IMG/VR virus record: IMGVR_UViG_3300047160_027173
Coordinates: 66,240 to 130,239 of that record
Direction: 5' to 3' (one strand)
Source of the DNA: a virus
Length of the DNA: 64,000 bases
Under the pieces are notes generated by a model. It was given only the letters and a program-made list of their open reading frames with translations, had not been told where the DNA came from and made no database searches. Of the stretch, positions 2,452-17,550 are shown piece after piece (the stretch's first letter is position 1; each line of letters opens with the position of its first letter). A program made the translations under genes and the position numbers.

Positions 2452-5400
2452 TCACTTGCCCTGGAGCTTCCCGAAGATGCCCGGCTTCTTCGGTGCGGGG
2501 GCGGCGGCGGGCTTGTTGGCCAGCGGGCCCGGGCGGGCACTGAGCTGGGGGCGCTGGCTGGGCAGCGGGTTGGAAGCCATCGGGGTGGAGGGCGGCTTGA
2601 TCTGGGACTGGACCTTGGCGGCGGTCGCGTCCATGTGGGGCTTGACCATGCCACCGGTCAGGGCTGCACCGGCACCGAGCATGGCACCGGCGACCTTGCC
2701 CTTCCAGTTCTTCTCCAGGTCACCCTTGGCCACGGGGGGCTTCGGGGCCTGGACCAGCTTGGCCTTGGCGTCCTTCAGGTCCTGCATGGTGAACTTCTTC
2801 TTGGGCTTGGAAGCCTCTTCGCTGCGCTCCGGGAGACCTTCACCGGCCCAGGTGTCGAGGCCACCGGCCTTCTTCACGGGGGCGGCGTCTTCGAGAGCCG
2901 AGTTCTCACCGCTGTCCTTCTTGGAGGCAGCGTCCGAGGCCAGGGCGTCGTTCTTGCCGCTGTCCTTCTTGCTGGGGGCGTCACTCATGAGGGCGTCGTT
3001 CTTGCCGGAGTCCTTCTTCGAGGCAGGGGCGGCGTCCAGGCCCTTGTTGTCGGCGGGGACCTTGTCGGGGGCGGCGTTCTCCAGGGCCGAGTTCTCACCC
3101 GAGTCCTTCTTGGACGGGGCGTCGGTCATGAGGGCGTCGTTCTCGGACTTCTTGGCGGCGAGCTTCTTACCGGCCTCGACGCGGTGCTCGACCTTGGCCT
3201 TGGTGGCGTCCATGTGGGGCTTGACGGCGCCAGCCGTCAGGGCGACGCCAGCAGCCAGGGCACCGGCAGCGACCTTGTCCTTCCAGCCCTTCTCCATCGG
3301 CAGCTGGGGACCAGCAGGCGGGCGGAGATGCGAGCCCGGGAGCTTGATGTGGGACTCGACGCGCTTGGCGGCGTGATGAGCCTGGGCGGGGATGGCACCG
3401 GCAGTCATGGCCGTACCAGCGGCCAGAGCAGCGGCGGCGACCTTCTCCTTCCAGCCCTTCTCGACGGCTTCACCCTTCATGGCCATGCCCGTGCTGGCAG
3501 TGCCAGGGGCAGCACCCATCTTCGGGGGCTTGGCCATGGCCGGGGCCGGCATGCCGCCCATACCCTTGGCAACGCCGGAGACACTGGTCTCCATGGGGCT
3601 GGCCTCGGGCTTGGCGGGCTTCTTCATCCAGTCCTTGGTCTCGGCGCTGGCGGGCTTCTTGACGCCGTCAGCCAGTGACTTGGCGTAGGTCTTGTCGTTG
3701 GCACCCTCGCCGCGCTTGCTGTAGGTCTTGTCGCCGTTGGCACGGCCAGGACCGGGGGCATCCTTGCCCTCGCCACGCTTCGAGTAGGTCTTGTCGGCGT
3801 CGGACGGACCGCTGTCGGCCTTGTAGGGATCATTGCTGCCCTTGTCAGAGAACTGACGGGCGCTGGCGTCGTCGGCCTTCTGGCCGGGGTTGCGCTTGAG
3901 CTTGGCACCGGGCAGCACCGCGCCACCGGAGCCGTTGGACTCTTCGTCGCGGAACTTCTGGCCGTTGCCGACGGGCTTCTCGGGAACGCCCTTGCTACGG
4001 GTCTTGCCGCTGGCCTTCGGGGGGAGGACCGCGTCGGGGTCGACGCCGTTCTCCACGAGGTGTCCCTGGTTGTCCACGAACTCTTCGGCCTTCTCCAGGG
4101 CCTTCTTCATCTTGTTGTGGATCTTCCAGGCGGTGGCGTAGGCCTTTTCCTTGTCGCCGCCGTACTGGGCCTTGAGCTTGTGCATCGTCTTCTCAGACAC
4201 GCCCGGAGGAGTTACCTTCTCCAGCATGTCCTGATGCTCGTCGCTAGCTGACTTCTCGCCCTCGGGCTTGGAGTCGCTGACGGTCTGAGCCTGGGGGGAT
4301 TCCCGGGGCTCGTCCTTCTTCACGGGCTTGGCCTTGCCACTGTGGGCAGAGCAGAAGTCCTTGTCACCCCTGATGCCCTTGCCGCAGGCCGGGTAGTTGC
4401 AGACGTGGGTCGGGCCACCGCCCTTCGCCATCTCGTCCTTGGCCTCGCAGCCCTTCTCCAGGTCGTGGGCCTTGCCACACTTCTTGCACAGAGCTTCGGC
4501 CTTGACGGCCATGTCAGCAGCGGGCACGTCCTCGGCGCCACCGCTCGCGGAAGACGCGGGCTTGTGGGCGTGGACAGGGATCAGAGACTTGGCAAGCTCG
4601 CGCTTGCGGAGACCATCGATCTCCTTCGCGAACGCATCGATCTTCTCACGAGTAGCCTTCAGAAGAATGTCCCGAGCTTCCTCGGGCGTGTAGAGCTTCT
4701 CGTTCTTGGCGTCGGCCATGGATACCTGTCCTCGGACGTATGTGTAGATTGCGTCCAGTTCCTGCACTTCAGCCTTGGCGACCGGGCTAGGTACGGGCTT
4801 GGACTTTAGGGTTTCGTGGGGCTTCAGACCCATGCGGGCAGCGTGTCCGCTGACCAGGGCCAGGGAGGTCGTCAGGGGCACCTGGCCGTTGTGGGGCTGG
4901 AAGCCTTCCTTGACGGGGTCCGTGAACTTACCGGTGACGGCGCGGTGGGCGGCGTCGTGCATGACGGTGTTGTACTCACGGTTGAAGTCGTCATCGCTGA
5001 TGTGCACGCCGAGCTTGGCGCTCAGCTCCCGCTGCTTGTGAGCGGCGAGGTGCTCCCAGTGGACGGCGCGCAGGGCCTCGTTGGGGGTGCGGTGCTGGCC
5101 GAGCTTGCCGATGCGGCGACCCTCGCCGTAGAGGCGGTTAACCTCGGGGTAGGTCAGCGCATGTGCTAGTTCGTGAACTTTCCGCCAGTTGTCGGTGTAC
5201 TCGCGCTCGCCGAAGTCACCACCCGTGCCCGGGTCCGGGTCGTAGATCATCAGGTGCTTGGTGTTGTAGTTGCGGTTGGCCAGGTCGGGCTTGCCGTACT
5301 TGCCACCGGCGTAGTAGTGGCTGTAGCCGTGCTGCTGGAGGAGGTCGTTGATGGCCTGGCCGTGGCCCCCATAGTTGTAGAACTTGAGATTCTGGCTGCC

Positions 5401-8949: not shown

Positions 8950-8974
8950 AAAGGAGTCTCTAACAACAGGACAG

Positions 8975-9047
8975 TTCCCCCGCTACGACTCGAACGTAGA
9001 TTTTCGGATTCAGAGTCCGACGGGCTGCCAATTACCACCACGGGGGA
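8975..9047 (-). tRNA. tRNA-Gln(CTG)
   Basis: Cloverleaf; anticodon loop CT CTG AA. Confidence 0.85.
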
Positions 9048-9052
9048 TCAAG

Positions 9053-9126
9053 CTCCAGGGGTTGGGATCGAACCAACCTAGTCCGAATTAACAGTTCGGC
9101 GCAGTCACCCTGATTGCTACCCTGGA
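9053..9126 (-). tRNA. tRNA-Asn(GTT)
   Basis: Cloverleaf; loop CT GTT AA. Confidence 0.85.
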
Positions 9127-9135
9127 ACACTACAG

Positions 9136-9207
9136 AGCGGGAGAAGGGGATCGAACCCTCGGCCCTCGCCTTGGCAAGGCGATGCTCTACCGCTGAGCTA
9201 CTCCCGC
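9136..9207 (-). tRNA. tRNA-Gly(GCC)
   Basis: Canonical cloverleaf; loop TT GCC AA; U73. Confidence 0.92.
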
Positions 9208-9220
9208 ATGCGGTACGACA

Positions 9221-9293
9221 TGGAGCTTGTGGGGGTCGAACCCACGACCTCAACACTGCCAGCGTTGCGCTCTCCCAACTGAGCTAAAGCCCC
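9221..9293 (-). tRNA. tRNA-Ala(GGC)
   Basis: Canonical; G3:U70; loop CT GGC AG. Confidence 0.92.
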
Positions 9294-9679
9294 GGAAACT
9301 TCTCGTAGGTTGCTGCGTAGTGGATGCCCGTCTTCTGCCCATTCAACGGCGGAGTCAGTCGCAGCTGGCCGGGACCGTCAAGGGGAATCCAATAAACGAC
9401 GTCCTTGTGCACAACGGCGAAGAGATCAATCTCCTCGGCTGTGTACTTCCGCCGCACGCCCGGACGTGGGTAGGACTGTTTCGGGAAGGCAATGGCTGTA
9501 CCACCTCTCACCAACTGCCCAGTCTTGACCTGGACCCGGATCAGCTTGGTACCGACCTCGACGAGGAGGTCGCAGCGCCCGCCATCCCCAAAGGGGAGGT
9601 AGGGGACCAGATTCTCTCGGAGGAGCCAACTGGTCACAATCGCGAGCGAGCGGTTCCCGATGGCGCTGGTGTTCTTCAC
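9284..9679 (-). CDS. PD-(D/E)XK endonuclease (group I intron-associated type) inserted in the tRNA array
   Basis: G...A.V...L...PFGD..RCDLLV...IRVQVKTG...Y..EEIDLFAV motif pattern. Confidence 0.8.
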   Translation of the reverse strand: MKNTSAIGNRSLAIVTSWLLRENLVPYLPFGDGGRCDLLVEVGTKLIRVQVKTGQLVRGGTAIAFPKQSYPRPGVRRKYTAEEIDLFAVVHKDVVYWIPLDGPGQLRLTPPLNGQKTGIHYAATYEKFPGL

Positions 9680-9703
9680 GTTCTGTACTTAACACCGACA
9701 CAG

Positions 9704-9775
9704 AGCCCGCGCTCGGAGTCGAACCGAGTCCTTCCGTCTTACAAGGGCGGCGCTCTCCCTCTGAGCTACGCGGGC
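9704..9775 (-). tRNA. tRNA-Thr(TGT)
   Basis: Cloverleaf; loop CT TGT AA. Confidence 0.88.
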
Positions 9776-9777
9776 AA

Positions 9778-9846
9778 TACCCCCGCCCGGACTCGAACCG
9801 GGGAGGCTGGTTTAGGAAACCGGCCGCTGACTCCATCAGCGGGGGC
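9778..9846 (-). tRNA. tRNA-Arg(CCT), short D-arm
   Basis: Acceptor and T arms intact; loop TT CCT AA. Confidence 0.7.
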
Positions 9847-9850
9847 GTGA

Positions 9851-9921
9851 AGCTCCGGGGCAGAGTCGAACTGCCGTCTCCAAGGTACGAGCTTGGCGTT
9901 CTGCCGTTGAACCACGAGAGC
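9851..9921 (-). tRNA. tRNA-Thr(CGT)
   Basis: Cloverleaf; loop CT CGT AC. Confidence 0.85.
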
Positions 9922-9924
9922 GTG

Positions 9925-10011
9925 CGGAGCCACGAGGATTCGAACCTCGGTAACGGTTTCCCGTCAACTGGTTTAGCAAACCAGCGCCTTCAGCCTCTCG
10001 GCCATGGCTCC
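9925..10011 (-). tRNA. tRNA-Ser(GCT)
   Basis: Long variable arm, G73; loop TT GCT AA. Confidence 0.9.
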
Positions 10012-10014
10012 ATG

Positions 10015-10085
10015 TCGGTGATGGTGGAGTCGAACCACCGTCGAAGCGTTATGAGCACCCCGTCCTGCCGTTGAACGAATCACCG
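10015..10085 (-). tRNA. tRNA-Met/Ile2(CAT)
   Basis: Cloverleaf; loop CT CAT AA. Confidence 0.8.
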
Positions 10086-10090
10086 ATGAG

Positions 10091-10165
10091 ATGCGGACCC
10101 GAGAGTCGGACTCGGTATCTCCAGCTTATGAGGCTGGCGTGGTTCTTCCGTTCCACTCGCCCGCG
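10091..10165 (-). tRNA. tRNA-Met(CAT), initiator-like
   Basis: C1:A72 mismatch, CGCGG start; loop CT CAT AA. Confidence 0.75.
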
Positions 10166-10167
10166 AG

Positions 10168-10238
10168 CAGGCCGTGAAGGAGTCGAACCCTCACCAAGGG
10201 GTTTGGAGTCCCTTGTGCTACCGCTACACCAACGGCCT
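10168..10238 (-). tRNA. tRNA-Trp(CCA)
   Basis: Cloverleaf; loop CT CCA AA; G73. Confidence 0.88.
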
Positions 10239-10242
10239 ATAA

Positions 10243-10313
10243 TGCTCCCTCTGAGAATCGAACTCAGATCGCGACCGTACCAGGGCCGTGCTCTTCCACT
10301 GAGCTAAGGGAGC
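10243..10313 (-). tRNA. tRNA-Thr(GGT)
   Basis: Cloverleaf; loop CT GGT AC. Confidence 0.88.
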
Positions 10314-10732
10314 TTGCGCTGCTGCTTCCAGGTCCGAACGCGATGGCAGTTCGCGCAGACCAGGTCGCACTTGGCGATCTCTTCCAGGACACGCTGCTTG
10401 TTGAAGCCTGTCACGCGCATCATGGAGACGTTCTCGGTTTTCTGCGTCGGATCGCGGTGGTCGAAGTCCATGACGTACGGCGGATACTTCACACCGCAGT
10501 CCATGCAGGGATGGTCCTTGATCTCATGGATCATGACATCCAGCTCAGCTCGGTGCTTGATCTCACGTCGCCGAGCCTTGTCCTTGTACATCTTCGGGTT
10601 CTCCAGGTAGTGATTCCGGTGATACTCGGCCTGGCAAGGCTTGCACTTACCGATGCGGCCGTCCTTGCTGCGCGCGTTCTTGTGGAACTCGCCCAAGGGC
10701 TTCTCGACCTGGCACGTGTTGCAGCGCTTCAT
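10304..10732 (-). CDS. HNH endonuclease inserted in the tRNA array
   Basis: MKRCNTCQVEKPLGEF...CMDCG...MDFDHRDP...EIAKCDLVCANCHRVRT; start revised to ATG 10732. Confidence 0.85.
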   Translation of the reverse strand: MKRCNTCQVEKPLGEFHKNARSKDGRIGKCKPCQAEYHRNHYLENPKMYKDKARRREIKHRAELDVMIHEIKDHPCMDCGVKYPPYVMDFDHRDPTQKTENVSMMRVTGFNKQRVLEEIAKCDLVCANCHRVRTWKQQRKLP

Positions 10733-10750
10733 CCGGATCATATAACAGTG

Positions 10751-10823
10751 GGCGGCCACTCGGACTCGAACCGAGATCTCAAGGCTTGGAAGGCCTGCGT
10801 CTTGCCATTGGAGCCATGGCCGC
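10751..10823 (-). tRNA. tRNA-Gly(TCC)
   Basis: Cloverleaf; loop CT TCC AA. Confidence 0.85.
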
Positions 10824-10826
10824 GTA

Positions 10827-10912
10827 CGGAGGAAGTAGGAATCGAACCCGGCCGCTTGCGCAGCTTCCGGTTTTCGAGACCGGCGAGAGCACCATTGCCC
10901 TCCGCTTCCTCC
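10827..10912 (-). tRNA. tRNA-Ser(CGA)
   Basis: Long variable arm; loop CT CGA AA; imperfect T stem. Confidence 0.75.
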
Positions 10913-10915
10913 ATG

Positions 10916-10987
10916 TGACCCCACCGGGTGTCGATCCCGGTCCTGCAGCGTGAGAGGCTGCTGACCTAGCCGGTAGTCTATGGGGCC
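10916..10987 (-). tRNA. tRNA-Glu(CTC)
   Basis: Cloverleaf; loop CT CTC AC; T-loop ATCGACA. Confidence 0.85.
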
Positions 10988-11057
10988 AAAAATAGGGGTC
11001 GGGGGCAGATGTTATCCCCGACTGCTTCAGGCGCGTCCGCCGCTGTGCTTTCCCCAG

Positions 11058-11129
11058 TGCAGCCTAGTGGGATTGAACCACTGACCTCCCCCGTGTCAGG
11101 GGGGCGCTCTTCCGCTGAGCTAAGGCTGC
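11058..11129 (-). tRNA. tRNA-Val(GAC)
   Basis: Cloverleaf; loop CT GAC AC. Confidence 0.9.
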
Positions 11130-11132
11130 ATG

Positions 11133-11204
11133 TCGAAGGACTGGGACTCGAACCCAGAACGCCGGCTTCCGACGCCGGAAGGTTAGCCATTACCTCATCC
11201 CTCG
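11133..11204 (-). tRNA. tRNA-Pro(CGG)
   Basis: Cloverleaf; loop GT CGG AA. Confidence 0.85.
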
Positions 11205-11209
11205 ATGTA

Positions 11210-11282
11210 TTGCGGAACTCCGGGTCGAACGGAGATCTACGGGTTCAAAGCCCGCCGGGCTGCCAGTTACCACCATTCCGCA
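11210..11282 (-). tRNA. tRNA-Gln(TTG)
   Basis: Cloverleaf; loop CT TTG AA. Confidence 0.8.
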
Positions 11283-11283
11283 G

Positions 11284-11356
11284 AGACAGATGCGAGAGTC
11301 GAACTCGCCTCTTCGGGGTTGCAACCCGAGGCCCTCACCGCGAGGACGAATCTGTC
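11284..11356 (-). tRNA. tRNA-Cys(GCA)
   Basis: Cloverleaf; loop TT GCA AC; U73. Confidence 0.85.
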
Positions 11357-11358
11357 GT

Positions 11359-11431
11359 TGAGTCTGCTCGGATTCGAACCGAGAACGCATGGTTTAAAAG
11401 ACCAGTGTGATAGCCGTTTCACCACAAACTC
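11359..11431 (-). tRNA. tRNA-Lys(TTT)
   Basis: Cloverleaf; loop CT TTT AA. Confidence 0.85.
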
Positions 11432-11434
11432 GTA

Positions 11435-11515
11435 TGGGCAGGGAGGGACTCGAACCCTCAAGCCTTTCGGCGCTGGCTTCTGAGACCAACGTGTATACCA
11501 TTCCACCACCGGCCC
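11435..11515 (-). tRNA. tRNA-Leu(CAG)
   Basis: Long variable arm; loop CT CAG AA. Confidence 0.88.
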
Positions 11516-11518
11516 GTG

Positions 11519-11592
11519 TGCCGCGGGAGGGACTCGAACCCTCACAATCCAGACTCTCAGTCTGGCACGTATACCAATTCCGTCACCTCGGC
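11519..11592 (-). tRNA. tRNA-Leu(GAG), short variable arm
   Basis: Leu-type D loop; loop CT GAG AG. Confidence 0.85.
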
Positions 11593-11595
11593 ATG

Positions 11596-11669
11596 CAGCG
11601 CTGCAGGGAATCGAACCCTGAACTCCACGTTCGTAGCATGGCGTGATGAATCCGTTTCACCACAGCGCC
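11596..11669 (-). tRNA. tRNA-Arg(ACG)
   Basis: Cloverleaf; loop CT ACG AA. Confidence 0.88.
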
Positions 11670-11671
11670 AG

Positions 11672-11745
11672 CACGACCGAAGGGAATCGAACCCTCATCA
11701 CCGCCTTCGGAGGGCGGTACTCTTCATCCGTTGAGCTACGGTCGC
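11672..11745 (-). tRNA. tRNA-Arg(CCG)
   Basis: Cloverleaf; loop CT CCG AA. Confidence 0.88.
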
Positions 11746-11747
11746 AG

Positions 11748-11832
11748 TTGAGGAGGAGGGAATCGAACCCTCTTGTGAGATCGTCACACCGGTTTTACAG
11801 ACCGGCGTCCCTTCCAGTGGAACCTCTCCTCA
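11748..11832 (-). tRNA. tRNA-Tyr(GTA)
   Basis: Long variable arm; loop CT GTA AA. Confidence 0.85.
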
Positions 11833-11833
11833 G

Positions 11834-11905
11834 TAGTTCCTCAGGGGATCGAACCCTGGACCTTCGCCTTGTAAGGGCGCCGCTCTTCCGCTGAGCTAAG
11901 GAACT
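11834..11905 (-). tRNA. tRNA-Val(TAC)
   Basis: Cloverleaf; loop CT TAC AA. Confidence 0.88.
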
Positions 11906-11908
11906 GTG

Positions 11909-11979
11909 TAGGCTCGTAGGGAATCGAACCCTCGTCATGCGCCTATCGAGCGCAGGTCTTACCACTAGACGACGAGCCA
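11909..11979 (-). tRNA. tRNA-Ile(GAT), atypical loop
   Basis: Stem TGCGC/GCGCA; loop TC GAT AG (C33). Confidence 0.7.
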
Positions 11980-11980
11980 G

Positions 11981-12054
11981 TCGAGAGACCGAGATTCGAA
12001 CTCGGAACGAAGGCTTCCAAGGCCAACATGATACGCAGGTTTCAACATCTCTCG
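11981..12054 (-). tRNA. tRNA-Pro(TGG)
   Basis: Acceptor and T arms intact; loop CT TGG AA. Confidence 0.75.
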
Positions 12055-12058
12055 TTGA

Positions 12059-12132
12059 TGCATCGGGGAGGACTCGAACCTCCACTGGTCGGGGTTTGAA
12101 GCCGCTGTCTCCTACCGTTGGACTACCGATGC
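12059..12132 (-). tRNA. tRNA-Leu(CAA), short variable arm, imperfect anticodon stem
   Basis: Canonical numbering gives loop TT CAA AC and variable region CCAGT; A73. Confidence 0.65.
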
Positions 12133-12134
12133 GT

Positions 12135-12205
12135 TGGACCGCCGGGGAATCGAACCCGGGTTGACCGGTTAAGAGCCGGCTGTTCTACCATTGAACTAGC
12201 AGTCC
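12135..12205 (-). tRNA. tRNA-Lys(CTT)
   Basis: Cloverleaf; loop CT CTT AA. Confidence 0.88.
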
Positions 12206-12288
12206 GTGAAACGCCCTGTTGCTCTTCCTTTAAGCTAGCCGCCCCATACGGGACGGCGCCGGATTCGAACCGGCATCACAGGGTCTAG
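12206..12288 (-). ncRNA. Circularly permuted tRNA-like RNA (YrlA Y-RNA-like)
   Basis: Order on the minus strand: CCCTGT, T arm GCCGG TTCGAAT CCGGC, GCCGTCCC, loop GTAT, GGGGCGGC, TA, D arm GCTT AAAGGAA GAGC, ACAGGG. Confidence 0.7.
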
Positions 12289-12360
12289 TTGCTCCGAACG
12301 GGTTTGAGCCGTTACCCTCCCAGGTAGAAGCTGGGCGCTCTCTCATTGAGCTACGGAGCA
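12289..12360 (-). tRNA. tRNA-Arg(TCT)
   Basis: Loop CT TCT AC; atypical T-loop CTCAAAC. Confidence 0.75.
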
Positions 12361-12361
12361 G

Positions 12362-12433
12362 TGGAGTCGCAGGGAGTCGAACCCTGAATTTCTGGGTGCA
12401 AACCAGATGTGTTCCCGCTAGCACTACGACCCC
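12362..12433 (-). tRNA. tRNA-Ala(TGC)
   Basis: G3:U70; loop TT TGC AC. Confidence 0.88.
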
Positions 12434-12436
12434 ATG

Positions 12437-12509
12437 CGCCTTCTCTTGGTTCCGACCCAAGGTCTCCGGCTTTTCAGACCGGCGCTTCCACCAGGTTAGC
12501 TTAGAAGGC
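12437..12509 (-). tRNA. tRNA-Phe(GAA)
   Basis: Loop CT GAA AA; atypical T-loop GTCGGAA. Confidence 0.8.
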
Positions 12510-12512
12510 AAG

Positions 12513-12584
12513 CACCTCGTAGGGGTTTCGATCCCCTCTCTTCGGCTTGAAAGGCCGAGGACCTCACCAGAAGTCGAACGAGGC
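12513..12584 (-). tRNA. tRNA-Glu(TTC)
   Basis: Loop CT TTC AA; T-loop ATCGAAA. Confidence 0.8.
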
Positions 12585-12588
12585 ACAG

Positions 12589-12656
12589 CGTATCCCCCGA
12601 GAATCGAACTCGGCTTAGCCGGTTAACAGCCGGCCCTAGGACCCAGCACGGGACAC
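12589..12656 (-). tRNA. tRNA-Asn(GTT), degenerate D-arm
   Basis: GCCGG CT GTT AA CCGGC; T and acceptor arms intact; D arm reduced. Confidence 0.6.
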
Positions 12657-12733
12657 AAGCTCCCTCCACTTCGTGCACAAGTCCGCTAAGGGTCTCGGCC
12701 AATGCCGACGCGGTTACGGGGGGAAGAACCCAG

Positions 12734-12805
12734 CGCTCCGTACGAGGGTCGAACTCGTCTCAACTGCTAGACAGGCAGTCTGCGACACCGGTCGCATCAC
12801 GAAGC
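12734..12805 (-). tRNA. tRNA-Asp(GTC)
   Basis: Loop CT GTC TA (U37); G73. Confidence 0.82.
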
Positions 12806-12808
12806 AAG

Positions 12809-12881
12809 GGCGATTGTCCGGTATCGATCCGGAACTGCGAGGGTCACGACCTCGCGTGCAGGCCACTACACTACAACCGCC
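12809..12881 (-). tRNA. tRNA-His(GTG)
   Basis: G-1:C73; loop TC GTG AC (C33). Confidence 0.8.
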
Positions 12882-12967
12882 ATCATCTATTCCGCGCTAA
12901 GCCTCTTCATCGGGTCCACCGTGAGGCCGCTCCTGGGCACTGTGACTACTCCATCATCTCCGTTCTG

Positions 12968-13450
12968 TCAACGGCCGATCACCTTGGCCTTGACGACGTG
13001 GTCGCCGAGGTGGGTCGCAGCCCACGACTCCGGCTTCAGAACACAGTACAGCCCCTGGCTGACGACCATTGCCGTCAGCTCCTTGACGTACAGGCTCGAC
13101 TTGAACTTGACGTTCGGGTTGGCGTCGACGTGTACCTCCAGGCTGCTTTCCTTGTTGAGCATGGGCTCCAGCTCCAGAGCCAGCTGAACGCTGTGGAAGA
13201 CCTCGCGGAGCAGGCGCTCGCGAAGCGACTTGATGCGGTCGGCGGTCTCCACGGTGTAGAAGGCACGGCCGCCCTTGCCGGGCTCGTGGACGGCGACCAC
13301 GGTCACGAACTGCGTGACCTTGCCGTCCTGCTGGCTGTCGGTGCCGACGTAGACAGTCCGCTGGCCGGCGAGAGCCTCGCGGATCACCGCCAGGGGCTCG
13401 GCCAGGACTGCTCCGTCTACCGTCTTCCACCTCTTTTCGAACATGCTCAC
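12968..13450 (-). CDS. RNase H-like YkuK-family protein, first gene of the tRNA operon
   Basis: VYVGTDSQ...FVTVVAVH...GKGG...LRERLLREV..S...EVHVD...KPESWAA...D. Confidence 0.85.
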   Translation of the reverse strand: MSMFEKRWKTVDGAVLAEPLAVIREALAGQRTVYVGTDSQQDGKVTQFVTVVAVHEPGKGGRAFYTVETADRIKSLRERLLREVFHSVQLALELEPMLNKESSLEVHVDANPNVKFKSSLYVKELTAMVVSQGLYCVLKPESWAATHLGDHVVKAKVIGR

Positions 13451-13465
13451 GTTTGCTTCCTTTCT

Positions 13466-13505
13466 GAAACGACGAAGGGGCCCGCGGTTTCCCGGGGGCC
13501 CCTTC
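13466..13505 (-). terminator. Attenuator terminator hairpin
   Basis: GAAGGGGCCC/GGGCCCCTTC stem followed by GTCGTTTC, the same weak tail style as other terminators in this window. Confidence 0.75.
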
Positions 13506-13546
13506 CATGGTCTATCTGGTCTCTCGGATCAGTCCATGGAAGGGGC
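13498..13546 (-). promoter_or_regulatory. Antiterminator helix, mutually exclusive with the terminator
   Basis: 13-bp perfect pairing of GCCCCTTCCATGG (13546-13534, last leader codons) with CCATGGAAGGGGC (13510-13498, overlaps terminator 5' arm). Confidence 0.75.
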
Positions 13547-13666
13547 GGTATCGGGCTTGATGCTGAAACCGCCCTCGGTACCCTGATTCGGGCACACGAC
13601 GACCGCGGCGGCCCGAAGGGACGCGCGATACCACATCGTATGCAAGGACAGAGCTTCCAAGTTCAT
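13529..13666 (-). CDS. Leader peptide (45 aa) containing all 20 amino acids
   Basis: MNLEALSLHTMWYRASLRAAAVVVCPNQGTEGGFSIKPDTAPSMD*. AGGAG abuts the ATG, so TTG at codon 3 is an alternative start. Confidence 0.65.
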   Translation of the reverse strand: MNLEALSLHTMWYRASLRAAAVVVCPNQGTEGGFSIKPDTAPSMD

Positions 13667-13679
13667 CTCCTGACGAGCT

Positions 13680-13702
13680 AGATTGAGGGCGACACTATAA
13701 CA
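13680..13702 (-). promoter_or_regulatory. Extended -10 (TG-T-TATAGT) plus CAATCT motif upstream of the leader
   Basis: Minus strand TGTTATAGT (13702-13694) and CAATCT (13685-13680). Confidence 0.6.
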
Positions 13703-13719
13703 CAGCCGCCCGACAGCCG

Positions 13720-14040
13720 CTACTTGGGCTGCTTCACCCGGGTCAGGGCCGAGTTGAGGACGTCGTAGAGGTCCTGCTGGCTGCAGCGGTCCTGGGGGAA
13801 GTCCTCGTTGAACTTCTGGCAGCGGTCGCCGAGAAACTCGAACAGGTCCTTGACGGTGGCCAGCAGCCATTCGTAGCGGTAGTGGTTGGGGCGCTCGCCG
13901 CGGGCGATCTGCTGCCTGATCATCTCCCGCTGGCGGATGCCGTAGCGGAGCTTGCTGTCGTTGTCGCTGACCAGGCGCCGGAGGACGTCGATGGCGTTGT
14001 CCAGGGTGCGGTCGTCGATCTCGGTCACGGTGTCGGTCAT
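13720..14040 (-). CDS. Hypothetical protein
   Basis: Start revised to MTDTVTE; translationally coupled to the upstream gene. Confidence 0.6.
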   Translation of the reverse strand: MTDTVTEIDDRTLDNAIDVLRRLVSDNDSKLRYGIRQREMIRQQIARGERPNHYRYEWLLATVKDLFEFLGDRCQKFNEDFPQDRCSQQDLYDVLNSALTRVKQPK

Positions 14041-14858
14041 AGGCTCTTGGTCACGGAAACAATGAACTTGTCTTTGATCTTCTCTTCCCACTGCTTCAGC
14101 GCCCACACCGCGGCCTCGTCGAGGAACTTCTTCGCTTCCAGGCCCGGATGGACCCAGCGCCCGCTGCCCTTCATCTTCGAAGAGGCCGTTCGGAATGTTA
14201 CCACAGACCTCCGCATCTTCTCCTCGCCGTTCTTATCCTTGTAGGGCTTCTGGTAGACGCGGACGCCGGCCAGGAAGGGGACGCCGGTCGGGCCCTGGCG
14301 GGGAGCGCCGATGGGCCCATGCCCCTGGCCAGGACCGCTCCCGTCCTTCAACGGAGCCGTGAGAATGTCAAAGCTGTGAATGAGGCCCTGCTTGGGCTGG
14401 CCGGCGGCATCACTCTCTAGCCCGCCCCAGGGGATGCCGCGGTCCTTCATCTCCTGCTTGATGGTGGAGGTCAGGTCTCGCTGGGCCTGGGTCTGTTGGG
14501 TGGGGCCCTTCTTGTGCTCGAAGGGCACAGCCAGGTACTTGCTGCCGTCCGCGGCGGTCTTCGTCGACTTGGACTTCAGGAGGTCGTCGATCATCTCGTG
14601 CTCGTCCATGCCTTCCTCGATCCACATGGCGTCGGGGTCGAGAATGATGGACCAGGTATCGGCGTCCACCTGTTCCACGTGCAGCGCCTCCAGATACTTC
14701 TCGCGGCTACTGTGGAGCTTGGCCTGGACCTCTTCGATGATGTGGGCCTCGGTCTGGATGACGAGATCCTGCAGGGCCTTCTTGCTCTCGGTCGCAGCAA
14801 CATCTTCCAGGTCCTTGAGGGACAGGAGGTCGCCGATGTCAAGGTTGAGGTAGATCAC
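14037..14858 (-). CDS. Putative neck/tail-completion virion protein
   Basis: Late cluster; ...KYLAVPF...VTFRTAS...WVHPG..A..F pattern. Confidence 0.5.
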   Translation of the reverse strand: MIYLNLDIGDLLSLKDLEDVAATESKKALQDLVIQTEAHIIEEVQAKLHSSREKYLEALHVEQVDADTWSIILDPDAMWIEEGMDEHEMIDDLLKSKSTKTAADGSKYLAVPFEHKKGPTQQTQAQRDLTSTIKQEMKDRGIPWGGLESDAAGQPKQGLIHSFDILTAPLKDGSGPGQGHGPIGAPRQGPTGVPFLAGVRVYQKPYKDKNGEEKMRRSVVTFRTASSKMKGSGRWVHPGLEAKKFLDEAAVWALKQWEEKIKDKFIVSVTKSL

Positions 14859-17356
14859 TGTTGGGGCAGGTCGCCGTCCGAGTAGTGCTCGGGCTGCGCT
14901 TCGGGCTTGTCCTTGGGCAGGCCACCTGGATGCTTGGCGCTGGTCGGGCGGCCAGTCGGGCTCGGGACGACACCGGAGCGCATGGCCTGCCAGCTGCTGT
15001 GACCGTCGGCGTGGGCTACCTTCCTCTTGCCGCCCTCACGGGCTCCGCTGGGGCTGGTGTCCTTCTGGCTGCCGTCGGGGAGGATGACGTTGTGCCTGCC
15101 GGTCTTGCCGGCCTCGGTGGCGGCCTTCTCCAGCTCCGAGCCGGGCTTGATGCCCTGCTTGGTCGGATCCAGGTCGGTGCCGTCGTGCAGCCGAATCCAC
15201 TGATGGCTCTCGCCCTTTGGGGTCTCGCCAACGACGGCCTCATGGGGAATGCGGTGGTGACGAAGGGTATCGCTGAGCAGCTCGGCGGCATCGTCACAGA
15301 AAAGGAACTCGCCACGACCGATGTGCCCGGCAATCTCACCCTCGTGCGCACCGATAAGGTCGCTCATTTCCTGGGGAGACTTCGCACCGCGGAGCTTCTT
15401 GGCGATGTGCCCGGGGATGTGAGCTAGCCTGAGACCGCGGGGCTTCGACTCAGCCTTCTCGACCATGTCGGGCTCGGCCGCGGCCAGCTTCTGCGGCAGC
15501 TGGACGTCGAGCAGGCGACCGGCCATGTCGGCGGCGCCAGCCGGGTGGCTCTGGTGCGGCGTCACGAGGAGTTCGGTCTGGGCACCGGAGTTGCGGCCAA
15601 ACCCAACCGAATGACTGGGGTCGAGCAGGTCGAACGAGGTGCGGACACTCTTAGTCGGCACCCAGCTGATGTACGGGCGCATGCCCTTGCCAATGGGGCT
15701 GTCGCCCTTCGGATAGAGCTTGTGAGAGTAGCTGGCGAGCGCCTGGTCCGGAACGCGCTTCATCCCCAGCACGCCCTTGTCGTCCAGGTACCGGGCCAGT
15801 GGCACGTGGGGCTCGCCGTTGATCATCTTCGACTTGGGCAACAGCGCCTTCTGGACCTGCAGATAGTGCTGATGGGCCTCATCGACGAGGTGGGAGTTCT
15901 TCACCAGCGAGGACGCCAGTTCGGCCACGTTCGGGATCTCGTGCTTGCTCGCGGCCAGACCGGCGGCGTGCTTGAGTCCGGCCATGAACCTCTGGTCCGC
16001 GTGCTGCGGATCGCTGTTGTACGAGGCCATGTTCTCCATGCGATGGTGGAGGTAACGGAGCAGCTGGGCCTTCGGCGTGTGCGCGTTCTTCTTGTAGCTG
16101 TTGTGGAGGTCCTTCAGGTCGTGGACTGCCTTGCCGGCCCGATGACCTTCCACAGCCAGCTGGAAGGCCAGTTCATCTTTTGGGCTTGGAGGGCCCTCGC
16201 TCTTGGCGAGGCCAGCCTCGGCGAGCAGTCCCTGGATGGCCTTTGAATCAAGGCCCTCCGCCTCCAGACGCTTGACGGTGTTCGCCATGGCGATGGCGGC
16301 CTGCTCGGGACGGTCCTGCTTGAACTTCGCGATGGCGCGAAGGGTATTCTTCGCGTGCGCGAGGTCCTCTTCGGGGGTCGTCGGGCGGGTACCGTGCTCC
16401 AGCGTGTCCGTCTCGTCAGGCGGAGTGCTGTTGCGGTTGTGGTCGGTGGCGATGAAGCGGCCCTGCTCGTCGCGGGGATGAGTCTTGGGGTCGAAGATGT
16501 CGGCCTTCTGCAGGCCCTTGCTCATGCCCTCGACCTCGGCGGGCTCGCCTTCCTCGGGGTCCTGGGGGGCGGCCCAGAGCGTGCGGCCCATGGCGATCAT
16601 CGTCTGGGCCATCTGATTGACGGCCTCGGCAATCTCCGGGTTCTGCTGCTGGAGCAGGGCCAGGGTCTGGGGGTTGCCCTTGAGCTGCTGGAGGATGGCG
16701 GCGATCTTCATCTTCAGGGCGTCGTTGGCGGCGTCCTGAGCGTGGGCCTCGGCGTCGGCCTTCTGCTTGTCGGCGGCGGCGTGGAAGTCCTTGAGGAAGT
16801 CAGCGGGCTGCTTCTCTTCCTTGGCGCCTTCCTCACCGTGGCCGCCTTCCATGTGCTGCATGAGCTGCTGCATGTGGGGGTCGTCGACGGTGCCCTGGAT
16901 GGCCTCTGGAGTCTCCTCGGCGCGGGCCAGGTACTCGTGGCCGAGCTTCTCCTGCTCGTCCTGCTGGAGCTGGAGGTTCTGGATGGTGTTCTCGACGTGG
17001 GGGCCGTAGGTGACGATGCGGTCTTTCCCTTCGAGTTTGGCCACGAGCAGGGCCTTCTGGGCCTCGCTGAGGCGCATGCCCAAGCCGACGCTGGCGCTGG
17101 CGCCCACCAGGGCGTGGTACTGCTGGCGGAGGGTGGGGACCTCGCCGATGCGGCTGGCGTCGACCTGGACGACGACCTCGTCGCCGCCGGCACTGACGAC
17201 CTGGCCACCGACACCCAGGGCCCACTTGGTCCAGAGGTCGTTGCCGTCGGTGATGAGCTTGCTCAGGCGGCGGACCTCGGCCACGTCATCGGCGAGGCTG
17301 GCCCGACCGACCTGGGACCCGATGCTGTCGCCGTCGATGCTGACGAAGAGATCCAT
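14855..17356 (-). CDS. Polyvalent virion protein: mCpol-like nucleotidyltransferase, ART-like and papain/transglutaminase-like modules
   Basis: Start MDLFVSIDGDSIG (ATG 17356); SAGGDEV...SVGLG...AKLEGKDR; R..S..ExL ART-like; C..H-W..DPT triad. Confidence 0.65.
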   Translation of the reverse strand: MDLFVSIDGDSIGSQVGRASLADDVAEVRRLSKLITDGNDLWTKWALGVGGQVVSAGGDEVVVQVDASRIGEVPTLRQQYHALVGASASVGLGMRLSEAQKALLVAKLEGKDRIVTYGPHVENTIQNLQLQQDEQEKLGHEYLARAEETPEAIQGTVDDPHMQQLMQHMEGGHGEEGAKEEKQPADFLKDFHAAADKQKADAEAHAQDAANDALKMKIAAILQQLKGNPQTLALLQQQNPEIAEAVNQMAQTMIAMGRTLWAAPQDPEEGEPAEVEGMSKGLQKADIFDPKTHPRDEQGRFIATDHNRNSTPPDETDTLEHGTRPTTPEEDLAHAKNTLRAIAKFKQDRPEQAAIAMANTVKRLEAEGLDSKAIQGLLAEAGLAKSEGPPSPKDELAFQLAVEGHRAGKAVHDLKDLHNSYKKNAHTPKAQLLRYLHHRMENMASYNSDPQHADQRFMAGLKHAAGLAASKHEIPNVAELASSLVKNSHLVDEAHQHYLQVQKALLPKSKMINGEPHVPLARYLDDKGVLGMKRVPDQALASYSHKLYPKGDSPIGKGMRPYISWVPTKSVRTSFDLLDPSHSVGFGRNSGAQTELLVTPHQSHPAGAADMAGRLLDVQLPQKLAAAEPDMVEKAESKPRGLRLAHIPGHIAKKLRGAKSPQEMSDLIGAHEGEIAGHIGRGEFLFCDDAAELLSDTLRHHRIPHEAVVGETPKGESHQWIRLHDGTDLDPTKQGIKPGSELEKAATEAGKTGRHNVILPDGSQKDTSPSGAREGGKRKVAHADGHSSWQAMRSGVVPSPTGRPTSAKHPGGLPKDKPEAQPEHYSDGDLPQQ

Positions 17357-17520
17357 GCACGGGCCTAGATTGCCGGATAGAGGAGGTTGCTGGCCGGAAG
17401 TCGAGGGCAGAGGTGGTGACTGGGTTGCCGTCCTAAAAGTGGGTCCAATGAGACCCCTCTCCGGGGCGAGCGGCGCCGGGCTTAAACTGAAGCGGCCACC
17501 TCTGCCTACATCTTCGGTGC

Positions 17521-17550
17521 TTGACTCCCGCCCCCGTCCCATGAGATAGT
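17521..17550 (+). promoter_or_regulatory. Sigma70-type early promoter, leaderless
   Basis: TTGACT-N18-GATAGT with an extended TG, 6 nt before ATG 17557. Confidence 0.6.

Follow-up and report, generated by a model that had tools for sequence, protein, structure and literature searches.

A candidate transcription attenuator with an amino-acid-complete leader peptide at the head of a phage tRNA array

Organization of the locus

The locus lies in a stretch of 64,000 nt (hereafter, the window; positions 66,240–130,239) of the 130-kb IMG/VR virus record IMGVR_UViG_3300047160_027173, which has a GC content of 65%. In soil metagenome DNA, low-depth fragments from four runs are identical to the window at the locus, with no variants and no joints, and the window phage is a soil phage. 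Among the sequencing runs found to contain the locus, none is of RNA. All of the features described here are on the minus strand. The upstream gene (128 codons) ends at 13720 and is followed by a gap of 53 nt, in which an extended -10-like box, TGTTATAGT, is found at 13694–13702. This box, a putative promoter, is the sole exact copy in the window, where the motif is not recurrent. The first-pass annotation had placed a promoter at this point; the -10-like match does stand at 13702–13694, but it stands alone, and a two-hexamer promoter scan, for lack of a -35 box, did not report it. A Shine-Dalgarno-like AGGAG (13667–13671) directly adjoins the ATG at 13666; 6 nt separate it from an in-frame TTG (13660), two codons past the ATG, whose spacing from AGGAG is the better of the two. 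The open reading frame that follows (13529–13666), here called the leader, consists of 45 codons and a TGA stop codon (13531–13529).

Within the leader, folds contain a hairpin at 13543–13574, formed by a repeat of 10 nt that is 90% complementary. The last leader codons (13546–13534) can pair over 13 perfect bp with 13510–13498, and the loop of this candidate antiterminator helix (13498–13546) comprises the stop codon and 18 further nucleotides. A GC-rich, terminator-like hairpin (13474–13505; dG -27.4), with 14-nt arms at 13505–13492 and 13487–13474 that contain one mismatch (93% complementary), begins 23 nt past the stop codon and is followed by a weak T tract (13464–13473), with four T in the first 8 nt. 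The first gene behind this putative switch (12968–13450) encodes a YkuK-like, RNase H-like protein (PF04308, E = 2.9e-31), and behind it lies the tRNA array (8974–12880), whose 37 tRNA genes have 34 distinct anticodons and serve 19 amino acids, with two ORFs inserted among them. The order and spacing of these elements on the minus strand (box, AGGAG, ORF, helix, hairpin, YkuK-like gene and tRNAs) fit an attenuator. The 45-codon ORF with its 20 amino acids and 34 codons, the hairpin, the 13-bp pairing of the last codons with a strand that overlaps the terminator, and the ykuK-like gene had all been described in the first-pass annotation, and all of them were recovered on recounting, pairing and domain search.

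ARAGORN with default parameters found 34 tRNAs in the array; relaxing them added three, of which Rfam confirmed one (Phe-gaa). The count of 37 tRNAs given earlier is thus correct, but the coverage of 20 amino acids claimed with it is not, since neither ARAGORN nor Rfam found a tRNA-Asp in any part of the genome, the array included. The two ORFs that interrupt the array are located at 9284–9679 and 10304–10741; one encodes a PD-(D/E)XK endonuclease (PF11645, E = 2.8e-16), and the other has no Pfam match and contains Cys/His motifs that resemble, by eye, a homing nuclease. Gaps of 69–82 nt at 12206–12287, 10988–11056 and 12657–12732 contain no tRNA by ARAGORN or Rfam, and the first of these gives a weak match to Y RNA-like (YrlA) RNA (26.7 bits, gathering score 69).

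Two genes upstream, at 14855–17542, is encoded an 895-residue protein with an N-terminal minimal CRISPR polymerase domain (mCpol, PF18182, E = 4.4e-14). Searches of IMG/VR with two upstream proteins returned either nothing or one distant, non-syntenic locus, L003, which contains a shorter relative of the 895-residue protein. A distant blastn search of a phage GenBank collection with positions 12900–14200 gave no match.

Composition of the leader

The leader uses all 20 amino acids in 45 codons, 34 of them distinct. By comparison, all 20 amino acids occur in only 199 of 33072 windows of 45 residues taken from the long ORFs of the phage (0.6%; the ORFs are six-frame and include spurious ones), and a null of independent draws agrees with this figure. 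The completeness of the leader has a probability of about 0.004–0.006, and the probability of at least 34 distinct codons is about 0.0006–0.0009. Eight amino acids are used once and the commonest, Ala, six times, so that, contrary to trp/his-type leaders, the composition is not enriched for one amino acid. Six of the codons had been named as disfavoured in this phage, and their relative use is indeed low: 0.05 for TTG, 0.08 for TAT, 0.09 for AAT, 0.12 for CTT, 0.27 for CAT and 0.30 for GAA.

The leader touches 30 of the 34 anticodons of the array (null mean 23.1, P = 0.0025). By simple wobble, 38 of its 45 codons can be read by the array, against 88.9% of codons genome-wide, and this rules out a mirroring of the array anticodons as an enrichment in the leader. 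Because the leader codons are no more readable by the array than the codons of the phage in general, the hallmark of the leader is breadth rather than matching. The seven codons without an array tRNA by simple wobble are TCC (three times), CCC, CCT, GAT and GAC. It had been stated that most leader codons are matched and that those for Ser and Pro are the exceptions; the majority and both exceptions hold, but the Asp codons GAT and GAC have to be added. The two Asp codons occupy leader positions 39 and 45. A ribosome stalled at either of them would probably mask the antiterminator strand, and this coincides with the lack of tRNA-Asp in the array.

Alternative folds of the leader RNA

Across the 130-kb genome, a search for perfect inverted repeats of at least 13 bp (with a loop of 3–40 nt) finds the 13-bp helix and no other. 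The 5' strand of the helix stops 2 nt short of the TGA, and eight of the bases of the helix are common to the 5' arm of the terminator-like hairpin. The two folds had been described as mutually exclusive, and the eight common bases bear this out in part; however, the thermodynamic folds allow an antiterminator of 7–9 bp alongside a hairpin of 6–8+3 bp, so that the exclusion is partial. The antiterminator helix appears in the minimum free energy folds of the locus. When the ORF and 11 further nucleotides were masked, which mimics a ribosome at the stop codon, the full terminator formed, and when the first 75 nt alone were masked, the antiterminator formed together with a shortened hairpin. Because the unmasked fold favours the antiterminator, the default without translation would be read-through, unlike the situation in trp. 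The antiterminator strand shares its first bases with the 3' arm of the upstream hairpin (13543–13574), which may thus be a counterpart of a 1:2 helix. As a candidate intrinsic terminator, the window hairpin combines a strong GC stem with a T tract that is weak, whereas the T tracts are clear in three related loci (L142, L145 and L148).

A leader that is translated might have a simpler effect, namely to couple a ribosome to RNA polymerase and so to protect the start of an untranslated tRNA transcript, with no sensing involved. In general, tRNA operons are untranslated, and a translated ORF at the 5' end could shield them. However, the presence of all 20 amino acids, the rare codons and the unique, terminator-competing 13-bp helix would all be left unexplained by coupling alone, and we consider it quite improbable as the full account.

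In an Rfam search of the window, the best match at the locus was RF01055 (Moco RNA motif) with 24.5 bits (gathering score 36; local E = 0.0009–0.0012), and no T-box match was found. This sub-threshold match could be taken to mean that the region is a known riboswitch, or that a chance ORF stands beside tandem hairpins with no function. However, scans of the loci of six relatives yielded neither Moco nor any other non-tRNA family above noise, and the ORF property recurs in 9–10 lineages, so that an absence of function, or a known riboswitch, is hardly credible here. The Moco riboswitch, being below threshold in the window and absent from the six relatives scanned, was rejected.

Leaders at the heads of related arrays

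Array heads were gathered from metagenomes, IMG/VR and genomes by using the YkuK-like protein as an anchor, and 18 were examined. The first-pass annotation had pointed to homologous loci as the place where the diversity of codons and amino acids, and an alternative helix, should recur if the leader has a function. An ORF of 44–54 codons with all 20 amino acids is located directly upstream of the array, on the same strand, in nine of the 18 array heads (the window, L004, L008, L005, L001, L010, L142, L147 and L148), and one further leader (L145) is nearly complete, with 19 of the 20 in 38 codons. The diversity of these ten leaders has a per-locus probability of 0.003–0.03. The short ORFs of L146, L153, L154 and L156 show ordinary diversity, no higher than background (P = 0.27–0.49), and no leader candidate was found at the array heads of L149–L152 and L155.

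The leader peptides are essentially unalignable. Their pairwise identities in optimal alignments are 12–37%, which is the chance level; only L001 and L005 are closer (62%). As background, all 20 amino acids were found in 10 of 471 non-leader six-frame ORFs of 44–53 aa in all of the fetched DNA (2.1%), and when 64% of the positions of the window leader were randomly redrawn, all 20 survived in only 1.6% of trials. Given identities at the chance level, this background and this low survival, shared ancestry alone cannot explain the recurrence, and amino-acid completeness itself looks selected, as far as sequence comparison can tell.

Several signs point to translation of these ORFs. The window leader has a single close homologue among the collected proteins: P0001 shows 86% identity and an in-frame insertion of two codons, and its C-terminal part, over the helix, is identical. 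Shine-Dalgarno-like sequences also precede the leader starts in the relatives. Together, the in-frame indel and these sequences are what would be expected of coding sequence, and the leader is presumably translated. The same signs, with the conserved position and length of the ORF, might be taken to mean that its product is a small protein with an independent role, the hairpins being an ordinary terminator and a fortuitous or stabilizing helix, and the completeness incidental. However, no family match for the leader was found in Pfam or PHROGs, and although the peptides are only 12–37% identical, nine of them contain every amino acid, against an expectation of about 2%. A folded protein of 45 residues would preserve sequence motifs and not composition, and such a small protein is thus very unlikely. 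We conclude that the leader is very probably both translated and selected for its amino-acid completeness.

Two of the diverse leaders, L142 and L145, are in Acidobacteriota genomes: L142 is on a 3.4-Mb contig of a metagenome-assembled genome, and L145 is in a genome from the same phylum. Both have textbook promoters (TTGACA with 17-nt spacing), and the T tracts of their terminators are clear. The hairpin of each of the four GC-rich loci starts at a similar distance past the stop codon (23 nt in the window, 24 nt in L004 and L142, and 21–27 nt in L145), which, from what is generally known of ribosomes, would place it just outside the reach of a terminating ribosome.

The alternative pairing also recurs. 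In folds of the nascent RNA, the 5' arm of the terminator pairs with the region of the stop codon in nine of ten hairpin-followed leaders; of 66 control hairpins located behind long ORFs, 21 pair in this way. The comparison is approximate because the controls were required to have at least three T in the tail and to start 10–35 nt past the stop codon, whereas the leader hairpins were chosen without those limits. Duplex energies of the terminator 5' arm with RNA upstream of it were compared with shuffles, and no single locus was significant (P = 0.10–0.24). Both the diversity and an analogous alternative pairing, which the first-pass annotation had proposed to look for in homologous loci, are thus found in a number of the relatives, in favour of its interpretation.

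Four loci (L008, L010, L001 and L005) have a different arrangement. They keep the ORF with all 20 amino acids and have no hairpin between its stop codon and the first tRNA (tRNA-Gln), so that terminator logic cannot hold in them; instead, a hairpin encloses the end of the ORF and lies 14–36 nt from tRNA-Gln. These ORF-end hairpins, of 9–11 bp, are located at about 470–550 in L008, 2320–2395 in L010, 2830–2895 in L001 and 230–290 in L005, and bases of their loops are complementary, by eye, to a purine-rich stretch just before tRNA-Gln. A pseudoknot enclosing the stop codon is a possible outcome of such pairing between loop and downstream bases.

These four loci speak for another interpretation, in which the leader is translated and selected for completeness but its output is not the choice of a terminator: the position of the ribosome might instead affect how the first tRNA precursor is processed or how stable it is, or whether Rho gains access. 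The possible pseudoknot, recognized by eye, would suit this interpretation, as would the weak T tract of the window. However, terminator-like hairpins are found 21–31 nt past the stop codon in the window, L004, L142, L145, L148 and L153–L156, and several of them combine a clear T tract with pairing to the stop region. For the window we regard an output other than termination as unlikely, although it deserves more weight than the other alternatives considered here, and we favour transcription attenuation.

Some further features of the related arrays were observed. In the low-GC phages L153, L154, L156, L148 and L060, a conserved cassette precedes the array and consists of a promoter, an ORF of 35–47 codons, a AAAAACGTTTAAC-type motif and a canonical terminator; in this group, all 20 amino acids are present in the ORF of L148 only. 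Within the tRNA array of L010, positions 3823–3912 give a tmRNA-like Rfam match below threshold (30.5 bits, gathering score 47).

The YkuK-like gene

Genes for PF04308 YkuK-like proteins are widely embedded in phage tRNA arrays. The search of IMG/VR returned 204 YkuK relatives, and 80 loci were kept (L009–L088). One or more tRNAs lie within 2.5 kb in 63 of these, and three or more in 54. In the closest relatives, the gene order is leader, tRNA-Gln(ttg), YkuK and tRNA-Ser(tga). In the distant loci (L011–L088), the YkuK-like gene is mostly in the middle of the array, and these loci are uninformative without more sequence; ten of them were extended. A role of the YkuK-like protein in the processing or repair of tRNA would be our guess.

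A model for control of the array

On the basis of these features, we propose that the tRNA operon of the window phage is probably headed by a ribosome-mediated transcription attenuator. Transcription would begin at the extended -10 box, and a ribosome would load at AGGAG and translate the 45-codon leader close behind RNA polymerase. If decoding is smooth, the ribosome would arrive at the TGA and cover the last codons (13546–13534); because these would then be unable to pair with 13510–13498, the terminator (13505–13474) would form, and most transcripts would end near 13466. If the ribosome stalls in about the first 35–38 codons, the 13-bp antiterminator would form first and take eight bases of the terminator 5' arm, and the polymerase would continue into the YkuK-like gene and the 37 tRNAs. 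A stall at codons 39–45 would probably mask the antiterminator strand, being so near to it.

With every amino acid and 34 different codons in the leader, the array would be turned on when nearly any charged tRNA becomes scarce. For the natural trigger, we infer that starvation, a mismatch of codon usage with the host and the anticodon nucleases of the host are all possible, and the phage would probably make its tRNAs when decoding is slow. A broader and more tentative proposal, about which we are ourselves somewhat doubtful, is that a complete test peptide has been kept by selection at the heads of tRNA arrays, in unrelated phage lineages and in arrays of Acidobacteriota genomes, as a universal readout of decoding. 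If any tRNA species were lost, for instance to host anticodon nucleases, replacement tRNAs and the YkuK-like nuclease would then be turned on, in a circuit for counter-defence and translation homeostasis that is not described in print.

Why phages carry big sets of tRNAs, and when these are used, is an open question in the field. If the model is correct, the synthesis of phage tRNAs is driven by demand, and the arrays are linked to tRNA-cleaving defences of the host and to starvation. The attenuator would also be one selected for completeness and not for enrichment in one residue, and it might find use as a small natural device for sensing translation stress. Full-text searches of the published literature (main texts) found no case in which a leader peptide controls tRNA genes, so that the present case, if true, would be the first found in such a search.

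Comparison with known systems

In the classical attenuators of amino-acid operons (trpL, hisL, leuL and pheL, and the multivalent thrL and ilvL), a ribosome that reaches the leader stop codon allows the terminator to form, and a stalled ribosome allows the antiterminator. In their leaders, one regulatory codon or a few occur in runs, and the genes that they control are biosynthetic. The logic proposed for the window is like theirs, and its helices overlap in a manner similar to their 1:2, 2:3 and 3:4 helices. However, unlike them, the window leader contains all 20 amino acids and would control tRNA genes.

The closest system in print, as far as the available text of the source describes it, is the attenuator of whiB7 (wblC) in mycobacteria, in which a promoter-proximal uORF is followed by a terminator and stalling leads to an antiterminator (PMC10274678). 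According to that text, the uORF of M. smegmatis whiB7 contains every amino acid but Cys, its sequence is variable among uORFs, and the attenuator is activated by depletion related to 18 of the 20 amino acids (PMC10274678). Removal of the single Trp codon or of the three His codons abolished sensing of the amino acid concerned, and thus single codons can suffice (PMC10274678). This precedent, as the text gives it, supports, together with the relatives of the window, the claim of the first-pass annotation that the array is gated by a leader which samples almost all of the tRNA pool; the claim has to be qualified in that tRNA-Asp is absent from the array and the leader has no preference for array anticodons. 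The two systems share a variable uORF of diverse amino acids with a terminator and an antiterminator. However, no relationship of sequence or genes was seen between the whiB7 locus and the window: the former, on the same account, controls the gene of a transcription factor in Actinobacteria, whereas a PF04308 gene and tRNAs of a phage lie behind the latter. In addition, the whiB7 uORF described there is enriched for Ala and incomplete, while in the arrays studied here it is the completeness itself that recurs.

A further parallel comes from Anabaena sp. PCC 7120, in which translational stress is reported to induce a long tRNA array, the trn operon (PMC8421152). The available text of that study (2021) makes no mention of a leader, of attenuation, of a terminator or of a small ORF. 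Control of the array has been assigned, in the text available of a further report, to the RHH repressor TrcR (PMC10272220). In both Anabaena and the model for the window phage, an extra set of tRNAs in the form of an array is turned on when translation is impaired; as far as these sources go, however, a repressor governs the array in Anabaena, whereas in the phage the translation of a leader peptide would itself provide the control.
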